Source: an uncultured Candidatus Saccharibacteria bacterium (GTDB lineage: Bacteria > Patescibacteriota > Minisyncoccia > Minisyncoccales > CG1-02-41-26). Taken from it: a stretch of 36,041 nucleotides of DNA. The notes below the pieces were generated by a model. That model worked only from the letters and a program-made list of their open reading frames with translations. It had not been told where the DNA came from and did not search any database. The position numbers and the translations under genes are program-made. This document shows positions 4,421-36,041 of this stretch, one piece after another. The DNA is taken from contig CAYLHU010000001.1 in the NCBI GenBank assembly GCA_964383715.1, positions 79,975-116,015 of the forward strand, read 5' to 3'. Each line of letters opens with the position of its first letter. The first letter of the stretch is position 1.

Positions 4421-4660
4421 AACAGATAAATTTCTAATTGACCTAATTTCTAATCAATAACCAATGTCTAATAACTAATTAGAGTTAAAATTCTAAACTC
4501 TAAATTCTAAACCCATTTATAATTTATTATTTATTATTTAGAATTTGTTTGGATTTTGACATTTGGATTTGATTTGACATTTGGATTTTGACATTTAGAT
4601 TTAAACCAAGAAATTAGTCATTGGTCATTGGGATTTCATTAGAAATTAGAAATGATAGGC
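4421..4660. repeat. short-word tandem arrays (TCTAAT / CTAAAC / GACATTTGGATTT words)
   Basis: Seen directly. The segment from about 4487 to 4540 is the inverted homolog of about 8975-9030. Confidence 0.7.
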
Positions 4661-4780
4661 GATGAAGCTAAAGCCTCATCTTGACTCGCTTGCCCGAGCA
4701 ACGGCGAAGGGTGGAAAAGATTTTTGAAAAAATCTTTGATTTACTTCGTAAAAACTCGTTAGAAATTAGGTTAATTTTAT

Positions 4781-5449: not shown

Positions 5450-5509
5450 ATTAGAGATTGTTAATGAGTGAATGCGGAGCATTCACGAATGTTACAATGT
5501 CTTACACCC
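5450..5509 (-). promoter_or_regulatory. shared leader cassette (variant) upstream of deoC
   Basis: Minus strand: GGGTGTAAGACATTGTAA, then the hairpin GTGAATGC..GCATTCAC, then TCATTAACAATCTCTAAT-ATG. Confidence 0.55.
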
Positions 5510-5610
5510 AGCACTTATTTTTACGGAAGTATTAGAAGGGTTTTAATTTTGTAATTCTAAGCGATAATGTTAATGCCTATTTTGTGTTTCTATAGAAATA
5601 AGTGCTGGGT
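5506..5610. mobile_element. MITE-like element, long form (copy 1), TIR ACCCAGCACTTATTT / AAATAAGTGCTGGGT
   Basis: Perfect 15-bp terminal inverted repeats. The interior is homologous to the other five copies. Confidence 0.75.
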
Positions 5611-5654
5611 TAGACGGATAAAAGGGCTTGATTAAGAAAAATTCTCCATTATGG

Positions 5655-9111: not shown

Positions 9112-11559
9112 TTAAATATCCAAATTCTTGACTTTCTTGGCGTAAAGCTGAATAAATTTCTTTCGGGGCATAACCTCTTTCCCCATTAATATGTCAAAAA
9201 TATGGTCAGCTTCTTTGGCGTCCTCAATAACCACTTTTAGCAATATCCTGTTTTGAGGGTCCATTGTCGTAGTCCAAAGTTCCAAAGGGTTCATCTCTCC
9301 CAAGCCCTTATATCGTTGGATATTTGGCTCTGTTTTTTTCTCTTTTTTAAAAGTGGTTAAAATCTCTTCTTTATCGGCATCCGTATAGGCATACTCTACG
9401 CTTTTCCCGCTTTGAATCTTATAAAGGGGTGGCTGGGCTATGTAAAGATATCCTTTATTAATTATCTCCCGAAAATATCTGTAAAACAGAGTTAAAAGTA
9501 ATGTTCGAATATGCGCCCCATCAACATCTGCATCGGTCATTATTATAATTCTTTGGTATCTTAGGCGACTTATATCAAAGTCCTGGGCGATGGCTGTTCC
9601 TAAAGCAATAATTAACGCCTTAACTTCGTTGAAAGTTAATATCTTATCAAGGCGTGCTCTTTCTACATTTAAAATTTTTCCTTTAAGGGGCAATATCGCT
9701 TGAAATCTCCTGTCTCTCGCCATTTTCCCACTATTATGGACAAAGACACCAGAAGCCAAAGCAAAATTATGAGTCCTCTCTACTTCTATATCGTAAACAT
9801 CTATTTTTTGAGAAACTTTGACTATTTTTTTGATACGATGATTATAATTTAACACAGCACTTTTTAATTTTTCTTTATCACTATCAAAAAATCTATGGCA
9901 AATTGTCTCATATTTTAAAATGCTCTTGTCATTTCTTAATTCCCGCTCTTGTTTTTTACGATAGAGTGGCATCAATGAATCTTTTACAGTAAGGTCTTCT
10001 GCTTTTTTATACCCCCCATTTCTTAACATAAACTTATGGTCGGGAGTACAGGTTATTTCTTCATCATTGTCCAATATCAATTTAACAACTTTCACCTTTT
10101 TCTTGGTTTTCCGAGCATTTTTTATTAATTCAACTCCAATCTCTCCATTTTCTTTTATGGTATAACAATAATTTTTCTTGCCTTCTTTTTCTTCCTTAAT
10201 TAACTCCTTAAAAGAAACATCTTTGCCATTTACTAAACTAATTTTCGTATCGCCGGCAAAACACCCTCCGGCGCTGTCTCCCTCAACTATATAAATTTCC
10301 GATTCGGACGGGTCCTTTGAGGAACAATCGGCTAATTTACCCGGTAAAGTCAACCCCTCTAAAATCCCTTTTCGCAAAACGGTTGTCCTCGCCACTTTGG
10401 CGGCTCTTCTTGCCCGAGCTGCCAAAAAACAATTTTCAATTATGGACTTGGCGTCTTGAGGGTTTTTCTCCAAGAATTCAGATAGGCCTTCTAAAACAAC
10501 GGCTTCAACAACGGACTTTGCTTCAGGATTCCCTAATTTAGCTTTCGTTTGCCCCTCAAATTGAGGTTCTTTTATTTTAACGGAAACGACCGAAGTCAAC
10601 CCTTCCCGAACATCATTCCCCGTGAGATTTTCATCCTTCTCTTTCAAGAAACCATTTTTCCGAGCATAATCATTCAAGGTTCTAGTCAACGCCCCTCTAA
10701 AACCGGTGAGATGGGTTCCCCCTTCGCCAGTAAAAATATTATTGGCAAAACTTTCCTCAAAACACTCCATCTCTTTTGTATATTGAAAAGCGGCTTCTAC
10801 CAAAATTTCATCTTTTTTCTTACAGGTATAAAAAATATGTTCGTGGCGAGGTTCGGAATCGTTAATTAGGTATTTAACATAGGAAGTCAAACCACCTTCA
10901 AAGTAAAAATTATAATCAAAATTAGGAAAAGTTCTTTCGTCGCGAACTTTTAATTTGACACCAAAACTTAAATAGGCCTGTTGACGAATATGATTTACAA
11001 TCTTTTTAAAATCAAATTTTACATTTTTAAATATGGTAGAATCGGGCTCAAAAATTATCGTTGTTCCCCTTTTATTACAACTTCCTATTTTTTTTATTTT
11101 CGTCTTTACTTTGCCTCGAGAATATTCTTGAGCATATTTCGCTCCATCCCGACAAACTTCAGCTCTCAAGTAATTACTTAAAGCACAAACAACAGAGACC
11201 CCAACTCCATGCAATCCCCCGGCTACCTGATAGGCCTTCCCACCGAACTTAGCCCCGGCATGCAAAGTCGTCATAACCGTTTCCAACGCCGATTTTCCGG
11301 TTTGAGGGTGCCTATCAACCGGTATCCCCCGGCCATTATCCTCGCATTTAATTCTGTTATCTGATAAAAGAGTGATTTCTATTTCGTTGGCAAAACCGGC
11401 CATCGCTTCATCAATACCATTATCTAAAACTTCCCAAACCAAATGGTGAAGTCCCTCGGGGCCCGTGGAACCAATATACATCCCCGGTCTTTTTCTGACC
11501 GGCTCAAGCCCTTTAAGGACATAAATATCTTTGGCACTATATTCTTCTTCTTTAATCAT
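9112..11559 (-). CDS. gyrB: DNA gyrase subunit B, interrupted by an in-frame mini-intein
   Basis: GHKL ATPase (HHLVWEVLDNGIDEA, GLHGVG), Toprim EGDSAGG ... IMTDADVDGAHI, and a QRYKGLGEM tail. It is 815 aa with the intein and 638 aa without it. Confidence 0.95.
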   Translation of the reverse strand: MIKEEEYSAKDIYVLKGLEPVRKRPGMYIGSTGPEGLHHLVWEVLDNGIDEAMAGFANEIEITLLSDNRIKCEDNGRGIPVDRHPQTGKSALETVMTTLHAGAKFGGKAYQVAGGLHGVGVSVVCALSNYLRAEVCRDGAKYAQEYSRGKVKTKIKKIGSCNKRGTTIIFEPDSTIFKNVKFDFKKIVNHIRQQAYLSFGVKLKVRDERTFPNFDYNFYFEGGLTSYVKYLINDSEPRHEHIFYTCKKKDEILVEAAFQYTKEMECFEESFANNIFTGEGGTHLTGFRGALTRTLNDYARKNGFLKEKDENLTGNDVREGLTSVVSVKIKEPQFEGQTKAKLGNPEAKSVVEAVVLEGLSEFLEKNPQDAKSIIENCFLAARARRAAKVARTTVLRKGILEGLTLPGKLADCSSKDPSESEIYIVEGDSAGGCFAGDTKISLVNGKDVSFKELIKEEKEGKKNYCYTIKENGEIGVELIKNARKTKKKVKVVKLILDNDEEITCTPDHKFMLRNGGYKKAEDLTVKDSLMPLYRKKQERELRNDKSILKYETICHRFFDSDKEKLKSAVLNYNHRIKKIVKVSQKIDVYDIEVERTHNFALASGVFVHNSGKMARDRRFQAILPLKGKILNVERARLDKILTFNEVKALIIALGTAIAQDFDISRLRYQRIIIMTDADVDGAHIRTLLLTLFYRYFREIINKGYLYIAQPPLYKIQSGKSVEYAYTDADKEEILTTFKKEKKTEPNIQRYKGLGEMNPLELWTTTMDPQNRILLKVVIEDAKEADHIFDILMGKEVMPRKKFIQLYAKKVKNLDI
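9733..10263 (-). mobile_element. 177-aa mini-intein within GyrB (residues 433-609), no homing-endonuclease domain
   Basis: It is inserted in the Toprim motif: EGDSAGG|CFAGDTKISL ... (TCTPDHKF, block B) ... VYDIEVERTHNFA ... GVFVHN|SGKMARD. It shows Cys1, the TxxH block, a terminal HN and a Ser +1. Confidence 0.9.
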
Positions 11560-12293: not shown

Positions 12294-14355
12294 CCCCTCT
12301 GACTTTCCAATCTGCTTTTTTCTCCAATTCATTGACAATTCTTTGATGGATATTGTCAACTTCTTCGGATGTTAATGTTTTCTTCCCCGATTGATAAATT
12401 ATATGAAAGGCAAGATTCTTTTTGCCTTTGGGAATTTCTTTTCCTTCATAAATATCAAAAAGTTCAACATCTTTAACTAAACCTTTTCCGATGTTGTTTA
12501 TTTTATCCAAGATATCAACTATCTTTGTATTATGAGAAACCAAAATGGCTAAATCCCTAACCGCTGGCGGATAAGGAGATATTGGATTATATTCTTGTTC
12601 TTCGGAAGCAATTTTAGAAATTTTTTCAAAATTAAGATTGAAAAGAAAAATTTTTTCCTTAATATCTATTTTTTTCAGTATAGCCGAATTAATTTCTCCC
12701 AAGAAACCAATCCCCTCCTTCCCAGCTTTTATTTCGGCGCATTTTTGAATATTCCAAAAGTTTGGACTGGAGAACTCTGAAGTTGATTGGAAATCGTCAT
12801 AAAGAATATTGCTGATGGCCAACTTATTGAGAAGAAAGTCCACGACACCTTTTAATTCATAAAAATCTTCAGAATTTGTTTTTTTTCTGGCGATTAACCC
12901 GCTAAGCATTTTTCTTTCTTTTATTTCTTCTTTTTTATTTTTTAATTGTCTTTTTTCAAAGACATCGCCTAATTCAAAAATCTTTATTTCTTCAAAGTTT
13001 TTTAGATTTTCTTCAACATTTTTTACCAGCTTAATCAATAAATTAGGACGAAGATACCTATTAAGAGAACTAATCGGATTTTCCAATTCTACCAATTTTT
13101 TCTCATCTAATTCGAAAACCTCTTTTTCTTTCTCCCCAATAAAGGAATAATTATAGACCTCAAAAAAACCTAATTCTTTTAAAATATCCTGACAAATTTT
13201 TTGCCAGAATATTTCTTTATTTTTTGAAGGAGAAAATAATGGTGAATAAGGATAACTCGGAATAATATTCTGATAATCCAAAATCCTTCCTATTTCCTCA
13301 ATTAAATCCTCTTGGAGAGAGACATCTAATCTTCGGGTGGGAACTTTTATCTCTATTTCCTCAGATAATTTCCCCTTAACTTCAAACCCTAATTTTTCAA
13401 GAGCGTTTTTTATTTCTTTCCCGAGAACTTTTCGCCCTAATAATTTTTCAACATAATTCAAATTTAGTTTAATTTTTCTTTCAGTCGTTTTTTTAGGATA
13501 AAAATCTATAGTCTTCCGAGAAACATCTCCTCCGCTTATTCCCTGAACTAGCGAGGAAACTCTTTCTTGGGTCCAATCGGCCAAATTAGGGTCAATCCCA
13601 TTTTCAAAGCGCCAAGAGGCGTCTGTTTTTAGTTTTATTTTTTTAGAGGTTCTTCTAATGAGTTTAGGATTAAAATTGGCCGCTTCTATAAGTATTCTTT
13701 TTGTTTGGGAGTCAATCTCCGCTTTCTCCCCTCCCTTGATTCCGGCAATAGCTAATGGCTCTTTTTCATCGGCTATTACTAAAATATCCTCGTCTAATTT
13801 ATAAACCTCTCCCCCAAGAGCTTTTATTTCTTCCCCCTTCCTCGCCCTCCTAACAATTATTTCTTGTCCCATTTTATCAAGGTCAAAAGCGTGAAGGGGC
13901 TGGCCAGTTTCTAACATCACATAATTTGTAATATCAACAATACTATTTATAGGTTGAAGCCCGCAGGACTTTAATCTTTTTTGAATCCAAAAAGGAGAGT
14001 CCTTAACTTTGATATTGGAAATTACCCTCCCAGTATAACGGGGGCAATCATTTTTATCCTCTACCTTCAATTTAATTTCGTTTTTTACTCTCTCTTCCTT
14101 ATTCTTTTTTATCGGACAAAGAGGAAGACAAAATTTCTGACCGGAAACAATAGCGGATTCTCTGGCTACGCCGATATGAGACAAACAATCACAAGCACGA
14201 TTTGGTAAAACATCAATATCCATAACCCAGTCCTCATTTCTTTTTTCAATTTTCTCTACCTCAAAACTATGCCCACTTAAAAGCTCGGCTAATCTTTTGG
14301 GAATTGGTAATTCTCCCTTGATATAATCCTTTAACCAATTGTAAGAAAACAACAT
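12283..14355 (-). CDS. pheT: phenylalanine--tRNA ligase beta subunit
   Basis: MLFSYNWLKDYI N-terminus, B3/4 and B5 regions, C-terminal anticodon-binding FDIYEGK...K..LAF. No pheS is adjacent. Confidence 0.9.
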   Translation of the reverse strand: MLFSYNWLKDYIKGELPIPKRLAELLSGHSFEVEKIEKRNEDWVMDIDVLPNRACDCLSHIGVARESAIVSGQKFCLPLCPIKKNKEERVKNEIKLKVEDKNDCPRYTGRVISNIKVKDSPFWIQKRLKSCGLQPINSIVDITNYVMLETGQPLHAFDLDKMGQEIIVRRARKGEEIKALGGEVYKLDEDILVIADEKEPLAIAGIKGGEKAEIDSQTKRILIEAANFNPKLIRRTSKKIKLKTDASWRFENGIDPNLADWTQERVSSLVQGISGGDVSRKTIDFYPKKTTERKIKLNLNYVEKLLGRKVLGKEIKNALEKLGFEVKGKLSEEIEIKVPTRRLDVSLQEDLIEEIGRILDYQNIIPSYPYSPLFSPSKNKEIFWQKICQDILKELGFFEVYNYSFIGEKEKEVFELDEKKLVELENPISSLNRYLRPNLLIKLVKNVEENLKNFEEIKIFELGDVFEKRQLKNKKEEIKERKMLSGLIARKKTNSEDFYELKGVVDFLLNKLAISNILYDDFQSTSEFSSPNFWNIQKCAEIKAGKEGIGFLGEINSAILKKIDIKEKIFLFNLNFEKISKIASEEQEYNPISPYPPAVRDLAILVSHNTKIVDILDKINNIGKGLVKDVELFDIYEGKEIPKGKKNLAFHIIYQSGKKTLTSEEVDNIHQRIVNELEKKADWKVRGVDK

Positions 14356-14394
14356 ACATTTTTATTTTAACAAAATCCTTCCGAAAAACAACAC

Positions 14395-14515
14395 AAAGGA
14401 AGGAAGGAAAAAGTGTAAAAGTGTAAAAGTGAGTAAGTGGACAAGTGAGTAAGTGGACAAGTGGATAAGTGAGTAAGTGGGTAAGTGAGTAAGTGTTGGA
14501 ATGTTGGAATGTTAG
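14395..14515. repeat. period-8 word array (GTGTAAAA, GTGAGTAA, GTGGACAA, GTTGGAAT)
   Basis: Seen directly, immediately upstream of the pheT start. Confidence 0.75.
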
Positions 14516-14558
14516 AGCAGATAAGTGGAATAAATAAAAAATAATAGAAAAAGAAAAA

Positions 14559-14874
14559 AGGTGCGTTTTGAAGGCGATGAGGGATTACCCTCATCTTTGC
14601 TCCTCGCTATGCTTGTCGCAGGCGATGAGGGATTACCCTCATCTGTGAGTCCACAAAGTGGGCGAATAAAGATGAGAGCAAAGCTCTCATCGCTTAACTC
14701 GCTCACTTTGTTCGTTTGGTGCGATCGTCCAGAAACGCACCTGTTTTTTACACGAAGAAAAGAAAATATAAAAGGTTCATTCTGGGACGATCGTCCAGAA
14801 ACGAACCTGTTTTTTTACACGAAGAAAAGAAAATATAAAAGGTTCATTCTAGGACGATCGTCCAGAAACGAACC
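14559..14874. repeat. composite hairpin repeat (unit X with internal duplications)
   Basis: It contains 2 copies of GATGAGGGATTACCCTCATC, the hairpin GATGAGAGCAAAGCTCTCATC, the hairpin GGTGCG..CGCACC followed by a T-run, and 2 copies of a module of about 63 bp with GGACGATCGTCC. Confidence 0.85.
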
Positions 14875-15015
14875 CAAACATAAAGACGGACAGGATAAGG
14901 CAAAAGAAACATTTTATAACAAATATCGCCGATCGTCAGGATTTGTTATAAAATAAATAAATAGATAAATATAGGCAAAAAAGGGAAAAAAAGGGGGAAA
15001 AGAATAAAAGAAAAA

Positions 15016-15216
15016 AGGTGCGTTTTGAAGGCGATGAGGGATTACCCTCATCTGTGAGTCCACAAAGTGGGCGAATAAAGATGAGAGCAAAGCTCTCATC
15101 GCTTAACTCGCTCACTTTGTTCGTTTGGTGCGATCGTCCAGAAACGCACCTGTTTTTTACACGAAGAAAAGAAAATATAAAAGGTTCATTCTGGGACGAT
15201 CGTCCAGAAACGAACC
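15016..15216. repeat. composite hairpin repeat (unit X, second copy, about 200 bp)
   Basis: Near-identical to 14559-14874 minus its internal duplications, in the same orientation. Confidence 0.85.
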
Positions 15217-15277
15217 CGATTGATAAAATGGAAAAAAGAAAAAAGGGAAAGAGGAAATAAAAAAAATAATAAAAAAG

Positions 15278-15352: not shown

Positions 15353-15405
15353 ATTAGAACGACTTAATGAACAATTTGAATTTAGTCGTTCTTATGTGCC
15401 GGTGT

Positions 15406-15573
15406 TCAAAGATTTTTTTTAAAAAATCTTTTCTATCAATCTTCGTGAAGCGAAGAGATGGTCAAAGATTTTTTTTAAAAAATCTTTTCTATCAATCTTC
15501 GTGAAGCGAAGAGATGGTCAAAGATTTTTTTTCAAAAAATCTTTTCTATCAATCTTCGTGAAGCGAAGATTGA
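15406..15573. repeat. 3 x 56-bp tandem repeat inside the insertion downstream of tRNA-CAU
   Basis: The unit is TCAAAGATTTTTTTTAAAAAATCTTTTCTATCAATCTTCGTGAAGCGAAGAGATGG. It contains the AAAGATTTT..AAAATCTTT palindrome also seen at about 4714 and about 25439. Confidence 0.8.
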
Positions 15574-20887: not shown

Positions 20888-21964
20888 TTATAACAGGTTT
20901 AAAACATCTTTTATTGTTACGACAAACATCAAAACAAGCAAACAGACAAAACAAAAAATGGTAATGCCCTGTTCTATTTTTTGAGAAATAGGTTTCTTGC
21001 GTATCCCTTCAATAATTAAGAATAGAAGTTTCCCTCCGTCTAAAGCTGGAATCGGTAAAATATTAAATAAAGCCAGCCAAACGGCAATCATCGCCACTAA
21101 AATCAAGAAACTATCCACCCCCGTATTTAGCGCCTGCCCCATTACATCAACTACTCCTATTGGACCCATAAGCTCTACTCCTTCGGTCTTTTCTCCTTTT
21201 AAAAAGTTTCGAAAAACACCGCCTAAAACAATTGGGATTTGAATCGTTTTCTGATAAGTTACTACCGCTCCTATATATAATGACTTAGACCAAGAGTATT
21301 TAACCTTACTCACTCTAACCAAAGCAACCCCAATCGCCCCTTCATCTTCTGGCGAAGAAACTCGCGGGATTAAAGAAACTTCGGAAATTTCCCCTCCCCT
21401 TTGAATAGTTAGAACGATTTCCTCTCCTTTATGGGTCTCGCTAAACTCCTGAATTTCTTTGATTTTGCTTATTCCCAATTTTTCATTTTCAATTTTTAAT
21501 TCTCTGATAATATCCCCCATTTTTAAATCAGCTTTTAAGGCAGGAGAGTCCTTTGATACTCCAACAATTTGAACATTTGATTCTCCGGGAAAATCATCAG
21601 AAACGGCAGTTGGTAACCCCCAAACCCCGGAAATCAAACTGAAAATAATAAAAGCCACGATCCAAAAGGAAACGACTCCCCCCAAAACTATCAGGGCCCT
21701 TTGCCAAATCGGTTTTTCGGGGAAACTTCTTGAATCTTCAATTTGACCTTCTTCTCCCTTTATCTTGACAAAAGCGCCAAATGGAAGAAGATTTAGTGAA
21801 TAAAAGGTCTCTCCAATTTTCTTCCCGAAAAGACGAGGAGGGTAACCAATGCCAAACTCTTCTACCTCCACGCCAAACTTTTTAGCAAGAATAAAATGAC
21901 CAAACTCATGAATAGTTAGTAATAAAACCAAAGATATAATAACGATTAAAATTGTTAAAAACAT
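20888..21964 (-). CDS. rseP: RseP-like site-2 (M50) zinc metalloprotease with PDZ domain
   Basis: HEFGHFILAKKFG (HExxH), a central PDZ-like segment, NILPIPALDGGKL, multiple TM helices. Confidence 0.85.
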   Translation of the reverse strand: MFLTILIVIISLVLLLTIHEFGHFILAKKFGVEVEEFGIGYPPRLFGKKIGETFYSLNLLPFGAFVKIKGEEGQIEDSRSFPEKPIWQRALIVLGGVVSFWIVAFIIFSLISGVWGLPTAVSDDFPGESNVQIVGVSKDSPALKADLKMGDIIRELKIENEKLGISKIKEIQEFSETHKGEEIVLTIQRGGEISEVSLIPRVSSPEDEGAIGVALVRVSKVKYSWSKSLYIGAVVTYQKTIQIPIVLGGVFRNFLKGEKTEGVELMGPIGVVDVMGQALNTGVDSFLILVAMIAVWLALFNILPIPALDGGKLLFLIIEGIRKKPISQKIEQGITIFCFVCLLVLMFVVTIKDVLNLL

Positions 21965-22028
21965 ATTAGAAGATGTTTCCGCTTAAGTTTTTACTCCGTA
22001 AAAAGTTAAGCGGATTACAGATTCTTAT
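21965..22028 (-). promoter_or_regulatory. shared leader cassette (full form) upstream of the rseP-like gene
   Basis: Minus strand: GGGTATAAGAATCTGTAA, then the hairpin CCGCTTAA..TTAAGCGG, then GCGGAAACATCTTCTAAT-ATG. Confidence 0.6.
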
Positions 22029-22133
22029 ACCCAGCACTTATTTATATGAAAATATTACAAGGGTTTTAACTTTATAAAACTAAATGATAATGTTAACCCC
22101 TATTTTGTTTTTCTGTATAAATAAGTGCTGGGT
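22029..22133. mobile_element. MITE-like element, long form (copy 2)
   Basis: Same TIRs, about 105 bp, same orientation as copy 1. Confidence 0.75.
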
Positions 22134-22151
22134 TAGACAGAGCAAAGCTTT

Positions 22152-22709
22152 TTACCCCGCTATTTCTTTTTCTTTATTTTCAACTAAGTTTTTTATTTTA
22201 TCCTTATAGTCCTTAATTAAGTCCTCTAATTTCTCTTTCCCCCGAAACTTATCGTCTTCACTAATCTCTTTTTTTTGAAAACCGTCTTGCATATCCTTCC
22301 ATGCCTTATCACGCAATCTTCTAATAACTTGAAAAATATTTTCTTTCTTTTCGTTCAAAATTTTAATTAAGTTCTTTTTAGAGTCCTCTGTTAGAGAGGG
22401 TGCCGAAAGATAAATAGTATTTCCTTCTATCCTAATCCCCATTCCCAATTTTCTCTCTTCAATGGACTTAATAACCCCCTCAACATAGCTTTTATCCCAA
22501 AGTTGAATTGACATTCCCCTTAAGGGAGAAACTGAAACAATCCCTAATTGTTTCAAGGGTAAAACCGAACCAAAACAATCTACCTTAATTTCTTCTAACA
22601 AGGCAACTGGTGGCTTCCCGACTCTTATTTCTAATAATTGCCCCTTAAAAAAATCTAAGGATTTCTCAATTTGAGGTTTTATATTGTCAATAATTTCTTG
22701 ATAAGACAT
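22152..22709 (-). CDS. frr: ribosome recycling factor
   Basis: Typical RRF layout (...IRVGK..P.LLE.I.V..YG...PL.Q...) and 185 aa from MSYQEII. The 10 upstream codons (..AETSSN) are the translated shared leader. Confidence 0.9.
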   Translation of the reverse strand: MSYQEIIDNIKPQIEKSLDFFKGQLLEIRVGKPPVALLEEIKVDCFGSVLPLKQLGIVSVSPLRGMSIQLWDKSYVEGVIKSIEERKLGMGIRIEGNTIYLSAPSLTEDSKKNLIKILNEKKENIFQVIRRLRDKAWKDMQDGFQKKEISEDDKFRGKEKLEDLIKDYKDKIKNLVENKEKEIAG

Positions 22710-22730
22710 ATTAGAAGATGTTTCCGCCGA
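22710..22730 (-). promoter_or_regulatory. shared leader motif upstream of frr
   Basis: Minus strand: GGCGGAAACATCTTCTAAT-ATG, abutting a MITE-like TIR. Confidence 0.6.
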
Positions 22731-22810
22731 ACCCAGCACTTATTTGTACAGAAAAACAAATTTATAAAGTTAAAACATTTGTAATACTTTTATAGAAATA
22801 AGTGCTGGGT
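22731..22810. mobile_element. MITE-like element, short form (copy 3)
   Basis: Same TIRs, 80 bp, opposite internal orientation. It lacks the internal segment of about 25 bp. Confidence 0.75.
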
Positions 22811-22832
22811 TTGGCAGATTACAGATTCTTAT

Positions 22833-22912
22833 ACCCAGCACTTATTTATACAGAAAAACAAATTTATAAAATTAAAATCTTTGTAATACTTCCGTATAAA
22901 TAAGTGCTGGGT
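22833..22912. mobile_element. MITE-like element, short form (copy 4), tandem with copy 3
   Basis: Same TIRs, 80 bp, 22 bp after copy 3. Confidence 0.75.
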
Positions 22913-22963
22913 TTGGCGGAGTTAACATTAATTAGCCAATCGGGCTTTGGCTTCGCCTCACCC

Positions 22964-23811: not shown

Positions 23812-23937
23812 TTACGAATAGTATGATACAAATCTACGAATCTAATGCTAATCTACAAATCTACGAATTTGGTATCGTGTTAATTCGTAGCATTCGTAAT
23901 TCGTAGATTCGTGTTTATTCGTAGATTAGTATCGCTA
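23812..23937. repeat. about 125-bp imperfect-palindrome element rich in ATTCGTAG / CTACGAAT words (copy 1)
   Basis: It fills the mreB2-holB spacer. Over its whole length it is the reverse complement of the copy at 27931-28060. Confidence 0.75.
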
Positions 23938-24945
23938 TTATTTTTTAGTTGTTAAGCTTTTCTTATAGAAATCCAAGTTTTCCAAGACCACCCCTACCCC
24001 CTTAATAACACAAAATAAAGGGGCCTCCCCGATAAAACAAGGAACAGCAATTGTTTTAGATATCAATTGTTCAATATTCCTTAATAAAGAGCCACCACCG
24101 GTCATAATCATCCCCTTGTCCATAATATCAGCTGCAAGTTCCGGTGGGGTTTTTCTTAGAACTTGCTTGATTGCCTCTATAATTTCTTCTAAGACCTCTT
24201 TCAGGGCTCCGACTAATTCGTTAGAATAAATTTTGACACTTCTGGGTAATCCGGAAATTATATCTCTTCCCTTCACTTCAATAAAATTTTCCTTTTTTTG
24301 AGGGATAGCTGTCCCAATCTTTATTTTTATCTCTTCGGCTGATTGAGTGCCGATAACTAAATTATATTTCTTCTTAACATATTCGGAAATAGCTGTATCC
24401 ATTTTATCCCCACCTACTCTAACCGAAGAAGATGTTACAATCCCCCCTAAAGAAATAACCGCAATTTCCGATGTCCCCCCGCCGATATCAATAACCATAT
24501 TTCCTTGGCTGGAATGAATAGGTATCCCCGCTCCTATAGCCGCCAATATCGGCTCTTTGGCCACGAAAGCCCTTTTGGCTCCCGAAGTTAAGGCCGCCTC
24601 AATAACCGCCCTTCTTTCAGTTGATGTTGCTCCGGCCGGCACGGAGATGACTAAATCAGGCTTAAATGGATTAAATCCCTTTTGGGCTTTAGTAATAAAA
24701 TGCTTAATCATTGCTTGAGTAACTCGGTAATCGGCTATAACCCCATCTTTCAAAGGACGATAAACTTTTATCGTTTCCGGTGTTCTCCCAATCATTAATT
24801 TGGCCTCTTCTCCAACAGCCAAAATCTTCTTTTCCGGTTCAGACAAGGCAACTACAGATGGCTCTTGTAAAATTATCCCTTTTTTGGGAATAAAAACCAG
24901 CGAGTTACATGTCCCCAGATCTATGGCAATTTTTGTGACAAACAT
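23938..24945 (-). CDS. mreB: MreB paralog (copy 2)
   Basis: KIAIDLGTCNS, IDIGGGTSEIAVISLGG and GGGSLL motifs, 335 aa. Clearly related to the copy at 18322-19374 but diverged from it. Confidence 0.85.
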   Translation of the reverse strand: MFVTKIAIDLGTCNSLVFIPKKGIILQEPSVVALSEPEKKILAVGEEAKLMIGRTPETIKVYRPLKDGVIADYRVTQAMIKHFITKAQKGFNPFKPDLVISVPAGATSTERRAVIEAALTSGAKRAFVAKEPILAAIGAGIPIHSSQGNMVIDIGGGTSEIAVISLGGIVTSSSVRVGGDKMDTAISEYVKKKYNLVIGTQSAEEIKIKIGTAIPQKKENFIEVKGRDIISGLPRSVKIYSNELVGALKEVLEEIIEAIKQVLRKTPPELAADIMDKGMIMTGGGSLLRNIEQLISKTIAVPCFIGEAPLFCVIKGVGVVLENLDFYKKSLTTKK

Positions 24946-25039: not shown

Positions 25040-25500
25040 GAGTTTTTGCTTTACAAAGGCAAAGATAAGGCGATGAGGGATTACCCTCATCTTTACAAGC
25101 TCACTTCATTCGCTTGTAGATGAAGCGAAGCATTCATCGCCATCAATCCTTTGCTTTACAAAGGCAAAGATAAGGCGATGAGGGATTACCCTCATCTATG
25201 AGCCCACAAAGTGGGCGAATAAAGATGAGAGCAAAACTCTCATCGCTTAACTCGCTCACTTCATTCGCTTGTAGATGAAGCGAAGCATTCATCGCCTGCT
25301 CAAGTGAGGCGAAGCCGAATGTAGAGCTAAGATGAAAACATAGTTTTCATCGCGAAACATCAAGTTTTTGCTTTACGCTCAATGAACACTTCGTGTTCAT
25401 TTCCACTCGCCTGCTCACTTTGTTCGCAGACTTCGTAATCAAAGATTTTTGAAAAAAATCTTTTCTACTCACCTTCGCTCTGCGAAGGTTCGTAAGCTAA
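25040..25500. repeat. mosaic array of GATGA...TCATC-type hairpins
   Basis: It contains two copies of TTTGCTTTACAAAGGCAAAGATAAGGCGATGAGGGATTACCCTCATC and two copies of CTCACTTCATTCGCTTGTAGATGAAGCGAAGCATTCATCGCC. It also has the GATGAGAGCAAAACTCTCATC, GATGAAAACATAGTTTTCATC and AATGAACACTTCGTGTTCATT hairpins and an AAAGATTTTTGAAAAAAATCTTTT palindrome. Confidence 0.8.
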
Positions 25501-25573: not shown

Positions 25574-26254
25574 TTAATCTTCTTTTTTTATTTTCTCTTT
25601 AAAATCCTGCCACTTCATTTCTTTTTTCCCAGCTATTTTGCAAATAGAACGAAAAGGACAATACCGGCACTGCCAATTACGAGGATAATCGGAAATAATA
25701 GAGGGAATAATATTAGAATTAATTTTATTTTGGAGGGACTTGAAATTAATTAAAAGTTTTTTACAAAGATTCAAATTATATTTTATTACGAATTCCCTTA
25801 ATTCTTGTCTGTCCTTGTCCACATATAAAAGAATCCCTTTTTTAATATTAAAATAATGAAGATAAAGTTGAATTTGATAAATATTCTCTTCTTTTGGCTG
25901 TTCTAACTTCCGAAAAGACATACTATTTATACTTTTAATGTCTAAAACAAAAAGCTCACTATCGATACTTAAAATAGCATCGGCTCTTCCCGAAATCATT
26001 TCTTGGGGAGGGATTTTTATTTCGGCTGCTACCACAATCCCCAACCTAATCAAGGTATTAGTGAGAGTCCGATGGAAATAATCCCCCTGCTCAAAAACTC
26101 TTAATATTCGTGCGTCTAATCTTTTCTCGGGAAGATTTTTAAATTTAAAAAAAACCGCCCGCTCACATTTGCCGGCATCGGTAACATAAAAATGAAACCT
26201 TTCTCTATTTCTTTCCTGTTCCAAATAAAATTTATCAATAAGCTCCCTTAACAT
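25574..26254 (-). CDS. Cas4/RecB-like PD-(D/E)XK nuclease with 4-Cys (Fe-S type) cluster, orphan
   Basis: N-terminal Cys (DAGKCERAVFF), GDYFH, GRADAIL, VLDIKS (D-x-K), QIQLYLHY (QxxxY) and C-terminal CRYCPFRSIC. I placed the start at MLRELID because the upstream codons (..AKTSSN) are the shared leader. Confidence 0.7.
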   Translation of the reverse strand: MLRELIDKFYLEQERNRERFHFYVTDAGKCERAVFFKFKNLPEKRLDARILRVFEQGDYFHRTLTNTLIRLGIVVAAEIKIPPQEMISGRADAILSIDSELFVLDIKSINSMSFRKLEQPKEENIYQIQLYLHYFNIKKGILLYVDKDRQELREFVIKYNLNLCKKLLINFKSLQNKINSNIIPSIISDYPRNWQCRYCPFRSICKIAGKKEMKWQDFKEKIKKED

Positions 26255-26282
26255 ATTAGAAGATGTTTTCGCCGAACCCAAG
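26255..26282 (-). promoter_or_regulatory. shared leader motif upstream of the Cas4-like gene
   Basis: Minus strand: GGGTTCGGCGAAAACATCTTCTAAT-ATG. Confidence 0.6.
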
Positions 26283-26316
26283 TTTCCCCTTCTACTCACA
26301 TCGTTAGTATGCATTA

Positions 26317-26464
26317 GTAGATTGGTATCGTGTAATTCGTAACATTCGTAGCATTCGTAGCATTCGTAATTCGTAGATTCGTGTTTATTCGTAGATTGGT
26401 ATCGTGTTGATTCGTAGCATTCGTAATTCGTAGATTCGTATTCATTCGTAGATTGGTATCACAC
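26317..26464. repeat. ATTCGTAG-word element, two tandem partial units
   Basis: GTAGATTGGTATCGTGT..ATTCGTAGCATTCGTAATTCGTAGATTCGT..TTCATTC is repeated twice. It fills the spacer between rpsI and the Cas4-like gene. Confidence 0.75.
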
Positions 26465-27115
26465 TTACCTCTTTGACCATTGTGGGGCTTTTCTTGCTCT
26501 CTTAAGACCGAATTTCTTTCTTTCTCTCATTCGAGGATCTCTGGTCAAAAAACCAGCTTTTTTTATTTTTTTTCTAAAATAAGGATTAACCAAAACTAAG
26601 ACCCTAGAAATACCGTGTCGGCAAGCCCCAGCTTGAGAAGACAATCCCCCTCCTTTGACTAAAATAGAAACTGTAAACTTATCAGAGCAATTTAGTATTC
26701 TTAAAGGGGCTTCTATTTCTTTTTGAAAAGCAATATCCGGGAAATAGGATTTATAAGGTTTTTTGTTAACCAAGATATCTTTCTTCACTTGAACGGTCTC
26801 TTCGCCATCTTTTGAAGAAAGTGGCGCGCTGGTAAAAAGACGAACTCTCGCTGTTGAAGTTTTTCTTCTCCCCACCGCCTCAAAATACTTTGAAATGGTT
26901 TTTTTCTTCTTATCTTCCCCCTTCTCCCCCTTTTCTGTCTTTTTTTCTTTTATCCCCCCTTCAATCTTTTTCTTTGGATTAATTGACTTAACCCCTTTTT
27001 TAATTACTTGCTTATCCCTTGAACTCACAGAAGAAATGGGTGAAGATGACAACTCCGTTGCTGTTGCCTGTTCTTTTTTTATTTCGTCTTTAATTTTGGT
27101 TTTTTTTTCAATCAT
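26465..27115 (-). CDS. rpsI: 30S ribosomal protein S9 with an N-terminal K/E-rich extension of about 80 aa
   Basis: The core GRRKTSTARVRL ... GGGLSSQAGACRHGISRVL ... TRDPRMRERKK.G...ARK..Q.SKR starts near residue 80. The ATG lies 5 nt after the rplM stop. Confidence 0.9.
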   Translation of the reverse strand: MIEKKTKIKDEIKKEQATATELSSSPISSVSSRDKQVIKKGVKSINPKKKIEGGIKEKKTEKGEKGEDKKKKTISKYFEAVGRRKTSTARVRLFTSAPLSSKDGEETVQVKKDILVNKKPYKSYFPDIAFQKEIEAPLRILNCSDKFTVSILVKGGGLSSQAGACRHGISRVLVLVNPYFRKKIKKAGFLTRDPRMRERKKFGLKRARKAPQWSKR

Positions 27116-27474: not shown

Positions 27475-27570
27475 AAAATATTATTTAAAATTAATGTTGT
27501 CCGTTACATGCTACATGTTACATGTTACATGTTACACATTACATGTTACATGTTACATGCTAAACGCCCT
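27475..27570. repeat. period-7 word array (TTACATG about 8 times)
   Basis: Seen directly. It fills the rplQ-rplM spacer. Confidence 0.75.
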
Positions 27571-29038: not shown

Positions 29039-29130
29039 GTAGCGTGTAGTGTGTAGCGTAAAACGTAGAAATTAAATTTTACAAGTTACAAGTTACAGGT
29101 TACAAGTTTTAAGTTACAAGTTATAAGGTT
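29039..29130. repeat. word arrays (GTAGCGT/GTAGTGT, then period-7 ACAAGTT about 6 times)
   Basis: Seen directly. It fills the rpsD-rpoA spacer. Confidence 0.75.
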
Positions 29131-29922: not shown

Positions 29923-30375
29923 TTATACTCTCCTTGGTTTTTTGGGACGGCAACCATTATGAGGGATTGGCGTTATATCTTGAATACTCTCAATCTCTAA
30001 CCCCTGGCTCACCAACGATTTCAAGGCGGTATTTCTCCCCCCTCCAACTCCTTTAATAAAAATACTAATTTTTTTTATTCTCAATTTTTCACAAATAAGA
30101 GCTACCGCTTGGGCAACTTTTGACGCCGCATAAGATGTCCCTTTTTTTGTTCCCTTAAACCCAATAGCGCCAGCACTTCTTGAAGCCAAAACATCTCCAC
30201 TTTCATTAGTTAAAGTGATAATAGTATTGTTATAAGTTGAAGAAATATAAACCCTCCCACCCCTAAATTTTTGGGTTGGAGAAATAGAAATTTCTTTTCG
30301 GAAACTTTTATCTACTTTTTCCCTTTCAGATAAAATCTCCTTTTCTGTTTTTTTAACAACTCTTTTCTTCCCCAT
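29923..30375 (-). CDS. rpsK: 30S ribosomal protein S11
   Basis: NNTIITLT...G.....SAG..GFKG.KK.T.YAA and TPIPHNGCRPKK.RRV, 150 aa. Confidence 0.95.
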   Translation of the reverse strand: MGKKRVVKKTEKEILSEREKVDKSFRKEISISPTQKFRGGRVYISSTYNNTIITLTNESGDVLASRSAGAIGFKGTKKGTSYAASKVAQAVALICEKLRIKKISIFIKGVGGGRNTALKSLVSQGLEIESIQDITPIPHNGCRPKKPRRV

Positions 30376-30396
30376 ATTAGAAGATGTTTTCGCCTA
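30376..30396 (-). promoter_or_regulatory. shared leader motif upstream of rpsK
   Basis: Minus strand: GGCGAAAACATCTTCTAAT-ATG, abutting a MITE-like TIR. Confidence 0.6.
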
Positions 30397-30476
30397 ACCC
30401 AGCACTTATTTCTATAAAAGTATTACAAATGTTTTAACTTTATAAATTTGTTTTTCTGTACAAATAAGTGCTGGGT
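30397..30476. mobile_element. MITE-like element, short form (copy 5)
   Basis: Same TIRs, 80 bp. It starts 21 nt upstream of the rpsK ATG. Confidence 0.75.
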
Positions 30477-30498
30477 TAGACGGGTTACAGATTCTTAT

Positions 30499-30600
30499 AC
30501 CCAGCACTTATTTCTGAAACACAAGATAGAGATTAACATTATCGTTCAGATTTATAAAGTTAAAACCCTTGTAATATTTCCATAGAAATAAGTGCTGGGT
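30499..30600. mobile_element. MITE-like element, long form (copy 6), inverted relative to copy 5
   Basis: Same TIRs, about 102 bp. Confidence 0.75.
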
Positions 30601-30664
30601 AAAGTTCTGCCAACCAATCGCGCTACGTCTCGTTACACTCGGCTTGCGCTCTTGGGGCATCATT

Positions 30665-33265: not shown

Positions 33266-35161
33266 CTAAATAAGAATTGCTTTTATTCGTCTCACTCCGG
33301 CACTTGATGATTCTTCTTTTTTAATCTTGAATTCTCCCAATTCAGATGTTCGCTGAATATGAGGACCGGCGCAAATCTCCCGACTAAAAGGAGGTTCTGA
33401 GCTTGTCGAAGAATTGCCTCCAATTGTATAAACGGAAACCTTTTCGGGATATTTTTCTTTAAAAAATGCCAAAACGCCTGATTTTAAGGCATCTTTAAGC
33501 AACATCTCTTCTCGTTTAACCTCCAAATCCGCTTTAATTTTTTGATTAACCAATAATTCAACTTTCTCAATTTCTTCAGAACTCATTTTTCTCTCAAAGG
33601 AAAAATCAAATCTTAATCTATCAGGATTAACATTTGACCCCATCTGTTGAACTTTCTCCCCCAAGACAATTCTTAGAGCACCCTGAAGTAAATGAGTAGC
33701 TGTGTGTAATTTAGTGGCTTTCAATTTCTCCTCCTCTGTTTTTAATTCTTCTATCCCCACTCCCCCAAATTTTTTCTCCGCTCCTACTCGAGATACCTCC
33801 TGATGTTTTTTTAATTTTTTTCTAAAATAATCCCAGTATTCTTTTTCGTTTATCTTTTTATTTACTTTTGGATATTTCCTTAATTCCTCTAATGTTAAAT
33901 CTGGAGGAAACCCGTAGGTTTCATACATATAAAAAGCAAACCCACCCTTAAATGGTAATTGCTGATCTTTTTCTTTTATTAAAGTTTTATTAAATAACTC
34001 AAAACTCTCAATATTTTTTTGTAAAAATTTTAATCCGCTATCTAATGTTTTCCCAAATTTTTCTTCCTCGTCTTTAATAACCTTTAAAATATTATCCTGT
34101 TCAGATTTTAATTCCGGATACACTTCCTCGTAAATACCTATCACTTTCTTAGACAAAGAAACAAGAAAATTTTGAGGTAGCCCCAATATCCTACCATATC
34201 GAATAGCCCTTCTTAAAATCCTTCTTAGGGTGTAACCTCTTCCGATATTTGAGGGTTCAATACCTTCTGCCCCTAAAAAAACAACCGATTTAATATGGTC
34301 AGCAACAATCCTCTCCCCCCTCAAATCTCCACAGGGCTGCCCTGTGTATTTTTCTTTTAAATCTCCACAGGGCAACCCTGTGTATTTTCTTAAATCTTTT
34401 AATATTAGCTCAAATATATCCGTTTCAAAAACCGAGGGCTTATTTTGAATGACAGCAACCAGTCGCTCAAGCCCCATTCCGGTATCAACTCCTTTTTGTT
34501 CCAATAACGAAAACTCCCTATTTTTATCTTGATAATATTCATTAAAGACCAAGTTCCAAATCTCAATAAATCTTCCGCATTGGCAATTGGGCAAACATTT
34601 TTCTCCTAACGAACAAGGGTTGCCAGTCAAATCGTAGTGAATTTCAGTCGTTGGACCACAGGGACCTTCTTCCCCCGTCGGCCCCCAAAAATTATCTTCC
34701 CGTCCAAAAGGATAAATTTTGTTTTTATCAATGCCTAATTTTTGCCAAATCTTCCCCGATTCCTCGTCTTTTGAAATCCTACTATCACCCTTAAAAATAG
34801 TGAACCATAATCTATCCTTGTCTAAATTACAAATCTCGGTTAAAAATTGAAAAGACAATTTAATGGCTTCTTCTTTAAAATAGTCCCCAAAACTAAAATT
34901 ACCTAACATTTCTAAAAATGTTAGGTGGGAAATATCACCAACATTATCAATGTCCGAAGTTCGGAGACATTTTTGACAAGAGGAGACCTTATTACCAAAG
35001 GGACTTTTTTGACCTAAAAAATATTTTTTAAACTGTTGCATCCCAGCCGTCGTAAAAAGAACTGTTGGGTCGTCAGAAATTAAAGGACTTGAAGGAATAA
35101 TCTTGTGTCCCCTTTTTTCAAAAAAATCTAAAAACTTTTGACGAATTTCTTGAGAGAGCAT
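33266..35161 (-). CDS. alaS: alanine--tRNA ligase, short form lacking the C-Ala domain
   Basis: FLDFF..RGH, FTTAGM, and editing-domain HTATHLL and CAGPH motifs. The protein ends shortly after GVRRIKAI. It is 631 aa, whereas full-length bacterial AlaRS is usually substantially longer. Confidence 0.9.
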   Translation of the reverse strand: MLSQEIRQKFLDFFEKRGHKIIPSSPLISDDPTVLFTTAGMQQFKKYFLGQKSPFGNKVSSCQKCLRTSDIDNVGDISHLTFLEMLGNFSFGDYFKEEAIKLSFQFLTEICNLDKDRLWFTIFKGDSRISKDEESGKIWQKLGIDKNKIYPFGREDNFWGPTGEEGPCGPTTEIHYDLTGNPCSLGEKCLPNCQCGRFIEIWNLVFNEYYQDKNREFSLLEQKGVDTGMGLERLVAVIQNKPSVFETDIFELILKDLRKYTGLPCGDLKEKYTGQPCGDLRGERIVADHIKSVVFLGAEGIEPSNIGRGYTLRRILRRAIRYGRILGLPQNFLVSLSKKVIGIYEEVYPELKSEQDNILKVIKDEEEKFGKTLDSGLKFLQKNIESFELFNKTLIKEKDQQLPFKGGFAFYMYETYGFPPDLTLEELRKYPKVNKKINEKEYWDYFRKKLKKHQEVSRVGAEKKFGGVGIEELKTEEEKLKATKLHTATHLLQGALRIVLGEKVQQMGSNVNPDRLRFDFSFERKMSSEEIEKVELLVNQKIKADLEVKREEMLLKDALKSGVLAFFKEKYPEKVSVYTIGGNSSTSSEPPFSREICAGPHIQRTSELGEFKIKKEESSSAGVRRIKAILI

Positions 35162-35166
35162 ATTCT

Positions 35167-35688
35167 TTAAGTAAACCTGTCGGCTATTATTGAGGCGGCA
35201 AAGGACTCCGGCTTTATTTTCGCCTCAAACCCGTTGCTTTTTATCAAACCAACAACCTCTTTTATCATATCTTTAGTCGGCCCATTTTGGCCAACATCAG
35301 CATGAACATATTGAAATTGATAGTTCAATTTAAGAGGAGATTTCCCAACTCTCTCCTTGATAGAATCCCTAAACCCCAAAGCCATTTCGCAGGAAAGATA
35401 AACTTCTTCCAAAATTCTTTGGCGAAATGTAAAAAATCTTTTCTTGCTATCTTCAGGATACCTGATTTTGGTAAGAAAAAATCTCCCCCCTCGTCCTTTT
35501 CTTAGAATAACTAAAACAACCGGGAAAGACGGCCTCTCATTAGAGTCCGAATCACACCCTATGACAATTTCGTAAAACTCACTGGGCTGGTCTGTCATAT
35601 AATCAAATACTTTTTCAACCACTCCTTGAAAGCTAACATTTTCACAATTTGGATTAAAAAAAAGAAAATCTTGATATTTATTAGACAT
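35167..35688 (-). CDS. YkuK/DUF458-like RNase H-fold protein (assignment from memory)
   Basis: 173 aa with IVIGCDSDS near the N-terminus, HADVGQNGPT, and a C-terminal AASIIADRFT, which resembles the YkuK family. Confidence 0.5.
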   Translation of the reverse strand: MSNKYQDFLFFNPNCENVSFQGVVEKVFDYMTDQPSEFYEIVIGCDSDSNERPSFPVVLVILRKGRGGRFFLTKIRYPEDSKKRFFTFRQRILEEVYLSCEMALGFRDSIKERVGKSPLKLNYQFQYVHADVGQNGPTKDMIKEVVGLIKSNGFEAKIKPESFAASIIADRFT

Positions 35689-35755
35689 ATATGAAATAAA
35701 TCTATTTATTATTCTATCATAAATCCTAAATTTTGAAAGACACTAAACTAAAAAA

Positions 35756-36041
35756 GGTTCGTTTGTGTGCGATGAGGGATTACCCTCATCTTTACAAACT
35801 CACTTCGTTCGTTTGTGGACGATCGTCTTAGAATGCACCCTTTTTCTTTTTCTTTCCTTCGTGCAAAAAAAGGTTCGTTTGTGTGCGATGAGGGATTACC
35901 CTCATCTTTACAAACTCACTTCGTTCGTTTGTGGACGATCGTCTTAGAATGCACCCTTTTTCTTTTTCTTTCCTTCGTGCAAAAAAAGGTTCGTTTGTGT
36001 GCGATGAGGGATTACCCTCATCTTTACAAACTCACTTCGTT
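35756..36041. repeat. tandem repeat, 116-bp period, about 2.5 identical units, running off the window
   Basis: The unit contains GCGATGAGGGATTACCCTCATC and GGACGATCGTCT. GGTTCGTTTGTGTGCGATGAGGG recurs at about 35756, 35872 and 35988. Confidence 0.85.

Follow-up and report, generated by a model that had tools for sequence, protein, structure and literature searches.

What maintains a family of hairpins whose stem bases stay constant as their tops change in a base-pair-preserving way: selection by the host for a structure, or the capacity of the hairpins themselves to spread? The question is raised by a 36,041-nucleotide stretch of metagenomic contig CAYLHU010000001.1 (hereafter the window, meaning the whole stretch analysed), in which an original prediction, made from the letters alone, had described such hairpins on a shared GCGATGA...TCATC base, assembled into composite arrays. 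The hairpins belong to a structured repeat family that is dispersed to non-homologous sites, coding sequence included, has expanded in one lineage and is locally amplified. At a probability of roughly 0.6, we consider its repeating unit to be a selfish, non-autonomous, structure-dependent mobile repeat of a Paceibacteria-type lineage of the Candidate Phyla Radiation (CPR, or Patescibacteria).

Every hairpin named in the original prediction is present in the window, with two copies given as 14680 and 15070 lying about 10 nt away, at 14671 and 15080. A pattern search places the hairpins as follows, all matches being recorded as plus strand:

14576, 14624, 15033, 25072, 25177, 35771, 35887 and 36003: hairpin GATGAGGGATTACCCTCATC, eight copies.
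14671 and 15080: hairpin GATGAGAGCAAAGCTCTCATC.
25224: a variant of the GATGAGAGCAAAGCTCTCATC hairpin, carrying CAAAACTC.
25119 and 25274: hairpin GATGAAGCGAAGCATTCATC.
25331: hairpin GATGAAAACATAGTTTTCATC.
4661: hairpin GATGAAGCTAAAGCCTCATC.

These 15 matches to GATGA-N8-16-TCATC are spread over four spacers (at 4.66 kb, 14.5-15.1 kb, 25.0-25.4 kb and 35.75 kb to the window end), against 0.16 +/- 0.39 in 100 dinucleotide shuffles, none of which held more than 2. Such an enrichment confirms the observation in the window. Near-identical contigs from a series of metagenomes, matching the window at 99.9-100% identity, enlarge the readable locus to ~55 kb, and the GATGA foot is found in 13 of the ~37 perfect hairpins of this extended locus (stem of at least 7 bp, with at least 3 G/C per stem arm).

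The claim of a constant base beneath a co-varying top is statistically real. Across 16 distinct variants of this hairpin, all three upper pairs change on both sides and 96.9% of cells are paired, a figure that falls to 38-66% in slid registers; double-change cells number 16 against 6.3 +/- 2.5 in shuffles (0/500), with GGG/CCC, GAG/CTC, AGC/GCT, AAA/TTT and AGA/TCT among the tops. That the five foot pairs do not vary follows from how the search was constructed. When the search is relaxed, a foot variant AATGA...TCATT emerges at 25381, a compensatory change of the outermost pair that had previously been overlooked.

Also overlooked, and apparent once the copies are oriented with their GC flank to the left, is that this hairpin (hairpin 1) forms only the first half of a unit of ~50 nt. 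In canonical form the unit reads (TAR)GC-GATGA[top1]TCATC-TTSAC-TC[top2]TC-GT-AW, and it is present in the window, in metagenome loci L016-L022 and in L005 (numbers of this kind denote the loci compared). In hairpin 2, a base of 2 bp (AC/GT) and a TC/TC internal loop are both constant, and the top, of 5-6 bp, is variable. In 10 canonical full units, double changes occur at 10 of 16 pairs against 3.7 in shuffles (0/500), and 96% of cells are paired, compared with 33-54% in slid registers; the covariation thus extends to both hairpins. A 'topless' hairpin 2 (ACTCAC-TTC-GTTCGT) is found next to filled versions, which hints at growth at the hairpin tip. The asymmetry of the flanking GC, as GC-GATGA...TCATC-T, and the occurrence of units in both orientations were correctly predicted. 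Covariation of this kind is compatible with a factor that recognises foot plus fold. By itself it does not prove the selection on structure that had been proposed, because template switching in palindromes or nested insertion at hairpin tips also yields paired changes.

Two motif readings of hairpin 1 were discarded. As an intrinsic terminator it lacks the following T-run, terminator-like matches amount to 2 weak ones against 1.2 expected, and only the outer palindrome described below, P, resembles a terminator. As a k-turn, box C/D or hammerhead reading of GCGAUGA it fails on inspection, with GATGA fully Watson-Crick paired to TCATC and the GAAA/CUGA partners missing.

The arrays are built via tandem duplication and inverted pairing, and comprise the following features (strand given where recorded):

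4658..4701, plus strand: a solitary double-hairpin unit in the gatB-deoC spacer, matched by covariance model R1 (27.9 bits, E 4e-6) and by pattern; its hairpin 1, GATGAAGC-taaa-GCCTCATC, lies at 4661-4680 (plus) and is followed by a degenerate hairpin 2.
14549..14760, plus strand: composite X1, from sequence and covariance-model matches, in which an outer terminator-like palindrome, AAAAAAGGTGCGTTT...AAACGCACCTGTTTTTT, surrounds three units at 14573-14620 (plus), 14621-14669 (plus) and 14643-14694 (minus).
14744..14886, plus strand: two 67-nt repeats, each with an 'empty' P palindrome, GGTTCATTCTGGGACGATCGTCCAGAAACGAACC, from the repeat family and alignment to the filled version; a T-run comes after the first (14744-14808) and none after the second (14811-14875).
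14905..14955: a separate AT-rich palindrome, TTTTATAACAAAT-(..CGATCG..)-ATTTGTTATAAAA, from sequence, with blastn matches placing it also, dispersed, in L015 and L017.
15006..15217, plus strand: composite X2, which lacks one 48-nt unit of X1 and has one P repeat added, from alignment and covariance-model matches; units at 15030-15078 (plus) and 15052-15103 (minus).
25045..25440: a mosaic array downstream of a PD-(D/E)XK nuclease gene, from pattern and covariance-model matches; units at 25069-25119 (plus), 25196-25247 (minus), 25307-25354 (minus) and 25378-25438 (plus, the AATGA/TCATT foot variant), with hairpin-only copies at 25119, 25177 and 25274.
35750..36041, plus strand: a tandem array of a 116-nt composite, a reverse P palindrome whose GACGATCGTC core is preceded by an inserted unit, from repeat families, the covariance model and filled-versus-empty alignment; units at 35768-35818, 35884-35934 and 36000-36041, the last cut by the window end.

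The large duplication that had been noted here, a 'unit X', holds: 14549-14760 and 15006-15169 are identical save for one 48-nt unit, extra in the first. The modules said to accompany the hairpins (a GGTGCG/CGCACC stem, a GGTTC/GAACC stem and a GGACGATCGTCC palindrome) are all present as well. The terminator-like P palindrome itself reads AAAAGGTTC...GGACGATCGTCC...GAACC, and a T-run follows one of its three empty copies (14744-14808). It is empty at 14772-14897 and 15181-15239; in X1, X2 and the 116-nt repeat at 35750 it is filled, the inserted unit preceding the CGATCG core. Inverted pairs with a common central hairpin lie at 14621-14694, 15030-15103 and 25174-25247, the first being the last two units of X1, which have a CCAC-aaa-GTGG hairpin in common. 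Folded as single-stranded DNA, X1 reaches -49.6 kcal/mol (z -8.6), and as RNA a z of -8.1; both folds nest the hairpins inside the outer stem. Elsewhere, L016 and L020 contain units in tandem at a period of 48-50 nt.

Two further observations concern the setting of these arrays. Firstly, CGATCG, which forms the core of the HIP1 palindrome of cyanobacteria, is in excess in the window (10 copies against 2.9 expected), eight of the 10 being central in repeat palindromes of the 14.5-15.2-kb and 35.8-kb arrays (sites include 14788-14793, 14855-14860, 14930-14935, 15197-15202 and 35820-35825). Secondly, the gap between the tRNA-Asp and tRNA-Met genes (window 15403-15571) holds three 56-57-nt tandem repeats, each with a AAAGATTTTTT..AAAAAATCTTT palindrome and a TCTTCG-tgaag-CGAAGA hairpin, and relatives of this repeat adjoin hairpin units at 4715-4740 and 25435-25490.

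The most telling copies of the unit lie within genes. In thrS, the threonyl-tRNA synthetase (ThrRS) gene ~1.9 kb left of window position 1 (L023 7149-7206), a 57-nt unit is inserted in frame, its 19 codons encoding GDEAKASSSPLANARLAQQ; a sister assembly (L026, 21-134) has two such units in tandem, differing at two bases. The insert is missing in the two closest ThrRS homologues (78-80% identity) and in most others. In a second species (L042, 67-70% identity), thrS also contains a homologous unit, at another position (VDELRSSSPFVNARV; GTCGATGAACTTCGTTCATCTTCACCC...AACGCTCGG), and the C-terminus of the same gene gives a weaker R1 match (E 0.0014). The two clear inserts are read in one and the same frame of the element, avoiding the TGA of GATGA, as by inspection is the third, C-terminal stretch. 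That in-frame copies should sit at different sites of one gene in two species speaks for selfish mobile DNA rather than for an RNA or protein-binding site under selection.

Other peculiarities of these synthetase genes were seen alongside. An NCBI record gives this ThrRS as only 431 aa, matching the 599-aa protein (P0003) at 100% identity along 72% of its length. The thrS gene of another CPR metagenome-assembled genome (L043) contains two in-frame GC-rich inserts, at 10124-10231 and 10328-10432 (...GPLRPRSEASEPRPFG..., ...RPPLRPLPPTRPRTTS...), the first visibly palindromic; one occupies the same loop as the window organism's insert, with unrelated sequence. In alaS (window 34276-34396, minus strand) a tandem in-frame 36-nt duplication encodes ...KYTGLPCGDLKE/KYTGQPCGDLRG..., each copy forming a perfect CACAGGG-nnn-CCCTGTG hairpin (34330-34346 and 34366-34382), a second palindromic insert in an aminoacyl-tRNA synthetase and one unrelated to the unit. 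Inserts like these, in frame in core genes, may be widespread in this clade of CPR bacteria.

How widely the family is distributed was assessed by running covariance model R1 over 376 kb of sequence. In the window, ~14 units fall below E 1e-4, all intergenic, and many more occur in L016, L017, L020 and L022, CPR contigs of the same sample series that share only repeats with the window and would therefore be other parts of the same genome or of close neighbours. Contexts there include a run of four tandem units between rpoB and rpoC (L022), sites among pilin-like genes and a site downstream of dnaJ. Beyond these, there is one unit in L005 (a metagenome-assembled genome whose PheT is 54% identical to the window's), one in L044 and two in L042; L043 and 12 further CPR relatives gave no match. 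The nearest relative, with a ThrRS 78-80% identical and the same gene order, has one unit in ~36 kb; its orthologous spacers mostly lack units, a comparison hampered by an assembly gap and high divergence. Exact 22-mer searches found no match in 185,579 GTDB representative genomes, nor in viral contigs, and a 20-mer is confined to one metagenome sample series. The census pattern points to a family old enough to be common to several CPR lineages, patchy in its distribution and strongly expanded in the lineage of the window.

What kind of process would place one folded unit in spacers inside essential operons, at the tips of terminator-like palindromes and in frame within thrS? For the selfish repeat favoured here, we envisage that a single strand folds, most plausibly DNA in replication and less likely RNA, and that a trans-acting enzyme would read the constant feet and unpaired tags (GC, TT-AC, the TC/TC internal loop and GTAA). 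The tops would only have to pair, and on this mechanism their pair-preserving drift follows. The proposal that the hairpins are a recognition site for a protein or RNA is accommodated in part, since constant feet and paired tops fit a factor reading foot plus fold; the in-frame thrS copies move the emphasis from a host-selected site to selfish DNA. The likeliest class of enzyme, by analogy and at less than even odds, would be an HUH/Y1 single-strand transposase of RAYT (REP-associated tyrosine transposase) or IS200/IS605 type encoded elsewhere in the genome: repetitive extragenic palindromic (REP) sequences are handled by RAYT, and IS200/IS605 ends by TnpA, as folded single strands (PMC3733652, PMC6006769).

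Several points weigh against this interpretation as a whole. The window has no Y1/HUH gene, in line with the earlier statement that no RAYT or IS200-like transposase is visible there, and no transposase of any kind, nor any Y1_Tnp domain, was found in the ~55 kb of genome or the other loci. GTAG, the tag cleaved by E. coli RAYT, is missing from most units. No clear target-site duplication was seen; an 11-nt direct repeat in the 116-nt composite may be homology to the 3' half of hairpin 2. As to which strand folds, a count of G.T versus A.C mismatches, 7 against 13, carries little information, coming from a covariance-model alignment that forces poor hairpin-2 variants. Lastly, there is no fresh transposition event among within-population differences, which are all tandem copy-number changes, some of them perhaps assembly collapse: among assemblies the 116-nt unit is present in 1-3 copies, the 63-nt unit at 25375-25438 in 1 or 3 (three in L032), the 409-nt X copy (X2) in 1 or 2 and the thrS unit in 1 or 2. 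Only the thrS difference is safe, because short-read assemblers collapse repeats and the thrS unit is shorter than a read, with copies that differ; most sister contigs end at arrays.

Genes near the arrays yielded no partner: antisense open reading frames in the ribosomal-protein operon are predicted membrane proteins, and nuclease-like neighbours have no demonstrable link to the units. The latter are three small genes within ~1.5 kb of hairpin arrays (25574-26314, 35167-35688 and L032 8285-8671), of types PD-(D/E)XK_1 with a C-terminal Cys cluster, PF04308 RNase H-like and PDDEXK_3. The former are two genes lying antisense within the operon to the right of the window (L032 1123-1533 and 4727-5545), at rplR/rpsE and secY/adk, in an otherwise conserved order; both are flanked by heptamer arrays and their products match no family.

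Among the alternatives, the one that survives best would have the hairpins serve in mRNA spacers, for instance as processing sites, stabilisers or attenuators, selected by the host for their RNA structure, with an RNA-binding protein reading the feet. Units do lie between co-transcribed genes, such as rpoB-rpoC in L022 and gatB-deoC in the window; both hairpins co-vary strongly, the RNA fold of X1 is far from random (z -8.1), UUCG-type loops are frequent, and on the reverse strand the TC/TC internal loop would form tandem G.A, a stable RNA motif. Yet units stand in both orientations relative to genes, even in one spacer, occur in frame at different thrS sites in two species and are mostly lacking from the orthologous spacers of the nearest relative. 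The missing T-run after hairpin 1 and the near-expected number of terminator-like matches count against it too, as does the Rfam search, in which only three tRNAs reach gathering score and permissive settings add only sub-threshold miRNA-hairpin noise. We regard this explanation as unlikely.

No likelier, in our estimation, is that the unit represents a new class of ultra-small CPR mobile element that neither a RAYT nor an IS200-type enzyme mobilises. Here a host nuclease, repair or replication activity would target hairpin tips, leading to 'Russian-doll' nesting. If this were true, the pattern of constant foot and variable top would record repeated insertion into hairpin apices, the element would contribute significantly to variation in protein length and to the growth of spacers in minimal genomes, and the unrelated palindromic in-frame inserts in other CPR ThrRS genes (L043) would be the same phenomenon.

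A third possibility dispenses with transposition, deriving minisatellite-like palindromes from few sites through local duplication and recombination between the feet, with tops arising via template switching or tip duplication. Template switching in quasi-palindromes is an established mutational route; within-population polymorphism is entirely of tandem copy number, many copies belong to larger duplicated composites, and the topless hairpin 2 next to filled versions fits growth at the tip. It is harder to reconcile with homologous units at unrelated sites and genes in at least four CPR lineages (ThrRS 67-80% or PheT 54% identical to the window's), or with two thrS insertions at different codons, and we think it improbable.

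More improbable still are double-stranded binding sites for a host protein, be it a nucleoid protein, a gyrase/IHF-like factor or one linked to a methylated motif like HIP1. Feet and flanking tags are indeed constant, E. coli BIMEs (bacterial interspersed mosaic elements) are bound by IHF and gyrase, and CGATCG is enriched (10 against 2.9 expected) in associated palindromes. A duplex-binding protein, however, gives the tops no reason to stay complementary, CGATCG belongs to the P module rather than to the hairpin unit, and copies in coding sequence and a patchy distribution speak against a conserved host function. CRISPR-like or type III toxin-antitoxin (ToxI-like) RNA arrays, suggested by the regular 48-50-nt and 116-nt periods and by the Cas4-like PD-(D/E)XK nuclease gene adjoining the 25-kb array, are effectively refuted, because the segments between hairpins are the conserved hairpin 2 rather than unique spacers, there are no cas or toxN-like genes aside from that lone nuclease, and the unit also stands alone elsewhere and inside thrS.

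The genome that houses the selfish repeat proposed here has, in the window, a GC content of 34%, nearly all genes on the minus strand and a lysine-rich, minimal-genome housekeeping set: miaB, miaA, gatB, thyX, nusG, gyrB (with an intein), pheT, gatA, two mreB genes, proS, frr and a ribosomal-protein operon. The X1-X2 region, 14,355-15,277, is a non-coding spacer with pheT on one side and a tRNA-Asp gene on the other. The nearest relatives of PheT and ThrRS are all CPR/Patescibacteria metagenome-assembled genomes, labelled Paceibacterota, Nealsonbacteria or 'Pacebacteria', and on protein similarity the host is a Paceibacteria-like CPR bacterium and not a cyanobacterium. A cyanobacterial origin had come to mind from the heptamer arrays and CGATCG palindromes, and was ruled out by the proteins and the PheT and ThrRS relatives, which are all CPR. 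The gyrB intein (window 9112-11559, minus strand; Pfam Intein_splicing) has a counterpart in the gyrB gene of the relative L043.

The hairpin unit is not the only repeat at this locus. A second dispersed family of ~80-100 nt has 15-bp terminal inverted repeats (ACCCAGCACTTATTT...AAATAAGTGCTGGGT), and occurs at window 5492-5650, 21962-22170, 22707-22950, 26252-26298 and 30373-30605, at L023 1250-1380 and at L032 2247-2482. Its flank gives an almost identical 21-nt leader, GGCGRAAACATCTTCTAAT-ATG, to at least four gene starts (rseP-like, frr, the PD-(D/E)XK nuclease and rpsK), with further copies near the nusB and rplO starts in the flanking loci; the family may be a mobile 5'-untranslated-region or promoter cassette. 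Tandem heptamer and octamer repeats (AAGTGAGT, ATTCGTAG, ATGTTAC, CGTGTAA and others), like the short tandemly repeated repetitive (STRR) sequences of cyanobacteria, occupy many spacers (window 14395-14520, 23869-23940, 26339-26467, 27494-27562, 29076-29123 and 4426-4660; L032 960-1040 and 4325-4460), and heptamer runs stand beside hairpins in the relatives L002, L005 and L009 too.

CPR genomes are small and are usually called streamlined. Here is one CPR lineage whose spacers are inflated by several repeat families and whose essential aminoacyl-tRNA synthetase has an in-frame, probably selfish insert, which suggests that even ultra-reduced, symbiont-like genomes are open to invasion by, and expansion of, selfish palindromic DNA. 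In the literature searched, no REP-like, MITE-like (miniature inverted-repeat transposable element) or RPE-like (Rickettsia palindromic element) repeat family has been described for CPR/Patescibacteria. A ~50-nt unit with two feet and two free tops may also offer a compact model for recognition by a mobilising enzyme. There is a practical consequence as well, in that such repeats break metagenome assemblies and can create spurious open reading frames and mis-called gene starts.

How, then, does the family compare with systems already known? The likeness to REP/BIME-type elements that had been proposed from the letters stands for behaviour, and membership is doubtful. REP sequences, BIMEs and the paired arrangements called REPINs are mobilised by RAYT (TnpA-REP) in Proteobacteria and others (PMC3116915, PMC3733652, PMC6006769), a REP being an imperfect palindrome, 20-40 nt long, that has an unpaired and conserved tetranucleotide, GTAG (or CGTC), at one stem end (PMC3733652). 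The unit resembles them as a short imperfect palindrome with a conserved unpaired tag on one side and in its high copy number in spacers, its presence in both orientations, as inverted pairs and as mosaic spacer arrays, its occasional genic copies and its very different abundance between related genomes. Size and repetition agree, the 36 kb holding ~14 full units and 15 GATGA hairpins, each 20-21 nt long, as does the REPIN/BIME organisation of inverted pairs with a central hairpin and tandem arrays of 48-50 nt. The tag, on the other hand, differs: GATGA is preceded by (R)GC and TCATC followed by T(T), CGTC is absent, and only the 25119/25274 and L016-6901 variants have a GTAG overlapping the foot. 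The unit also consists of two different hairpins instead of one, no RAYT or REPtron was seen in the ~55 kb and the few other contigs, and CPR is not among the reported host phyla.

Of the elements derived from IS200/IS605, palindrome-associated transposable elements (PATEs), and of MITEs (PMC6006769, PMC10969869), the unit shares the short and non-autonomous character, and two subterminal hairpins would match the left-end and right-end hairpins that a Y1 transposase reads on single-stranded DNA. It departs from PATEs and IS200/IS605 in that its two hairpins have different feet and that no parent insertion sequence was found. Nor is it a classical MITE, because its ends (TAGGC... / ...TCGTAA) are not inverted repeats and there is no clear target duplication.

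Closer parallels in habit come from two other groups. The RPEs, which Ogata et al. in 2000 reportedly described, are said to be Rickettsia-specific, 100-150 bp long and inserted in frame in protein-coding genes. They are mentioned in PMC1779305 and PMC10969869. Like them, the unit is a palindromic repeat of a reduced genome, lies in spacers and enters essential genes in frame, contributing a peptide to a tolerated loop: its 19 codons in thrS are missing from the nearest homologues, and a second species has a homologous unit at another thrS site. The two differ in length (~50 nt against 100-150 bp) and host (CPR against Rickettsia), and the unit is mostly intergenic, with thrS providing the only genic cases seen; the comparison is one of length, host and behaviour, not of sequence.

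The second parallel is with the small dispersed repeats SDR1-8, hairpin repeats of 21-27 nt reportedly set out by Elhai et al. in 2008. SDR4-6, STRR heptamers and HIP1 are described from Nostocaceae and SDR5 is associated with a GCGATCGC palindrome (PMC4390886, PMC5861425), SDRs being reported from Nostocaceae only (PMC5861425). By description alone, the unit shares with SDRs a very small size, a hairpin form, nesting in other repeats, proximity to tandem heptamers and the lack of a known transposase; the window, too, has heptamer and octamer arrays and CGATCG-centred palindromes around the units. The host is the point of difference, being a CPR bacterium instead of a cyanobacterium. In its behaviour the family combines traits of REP/BIME/REPIN sequences, of the RPEs of Rickettsia and of the SDRs of Nostocaceae.

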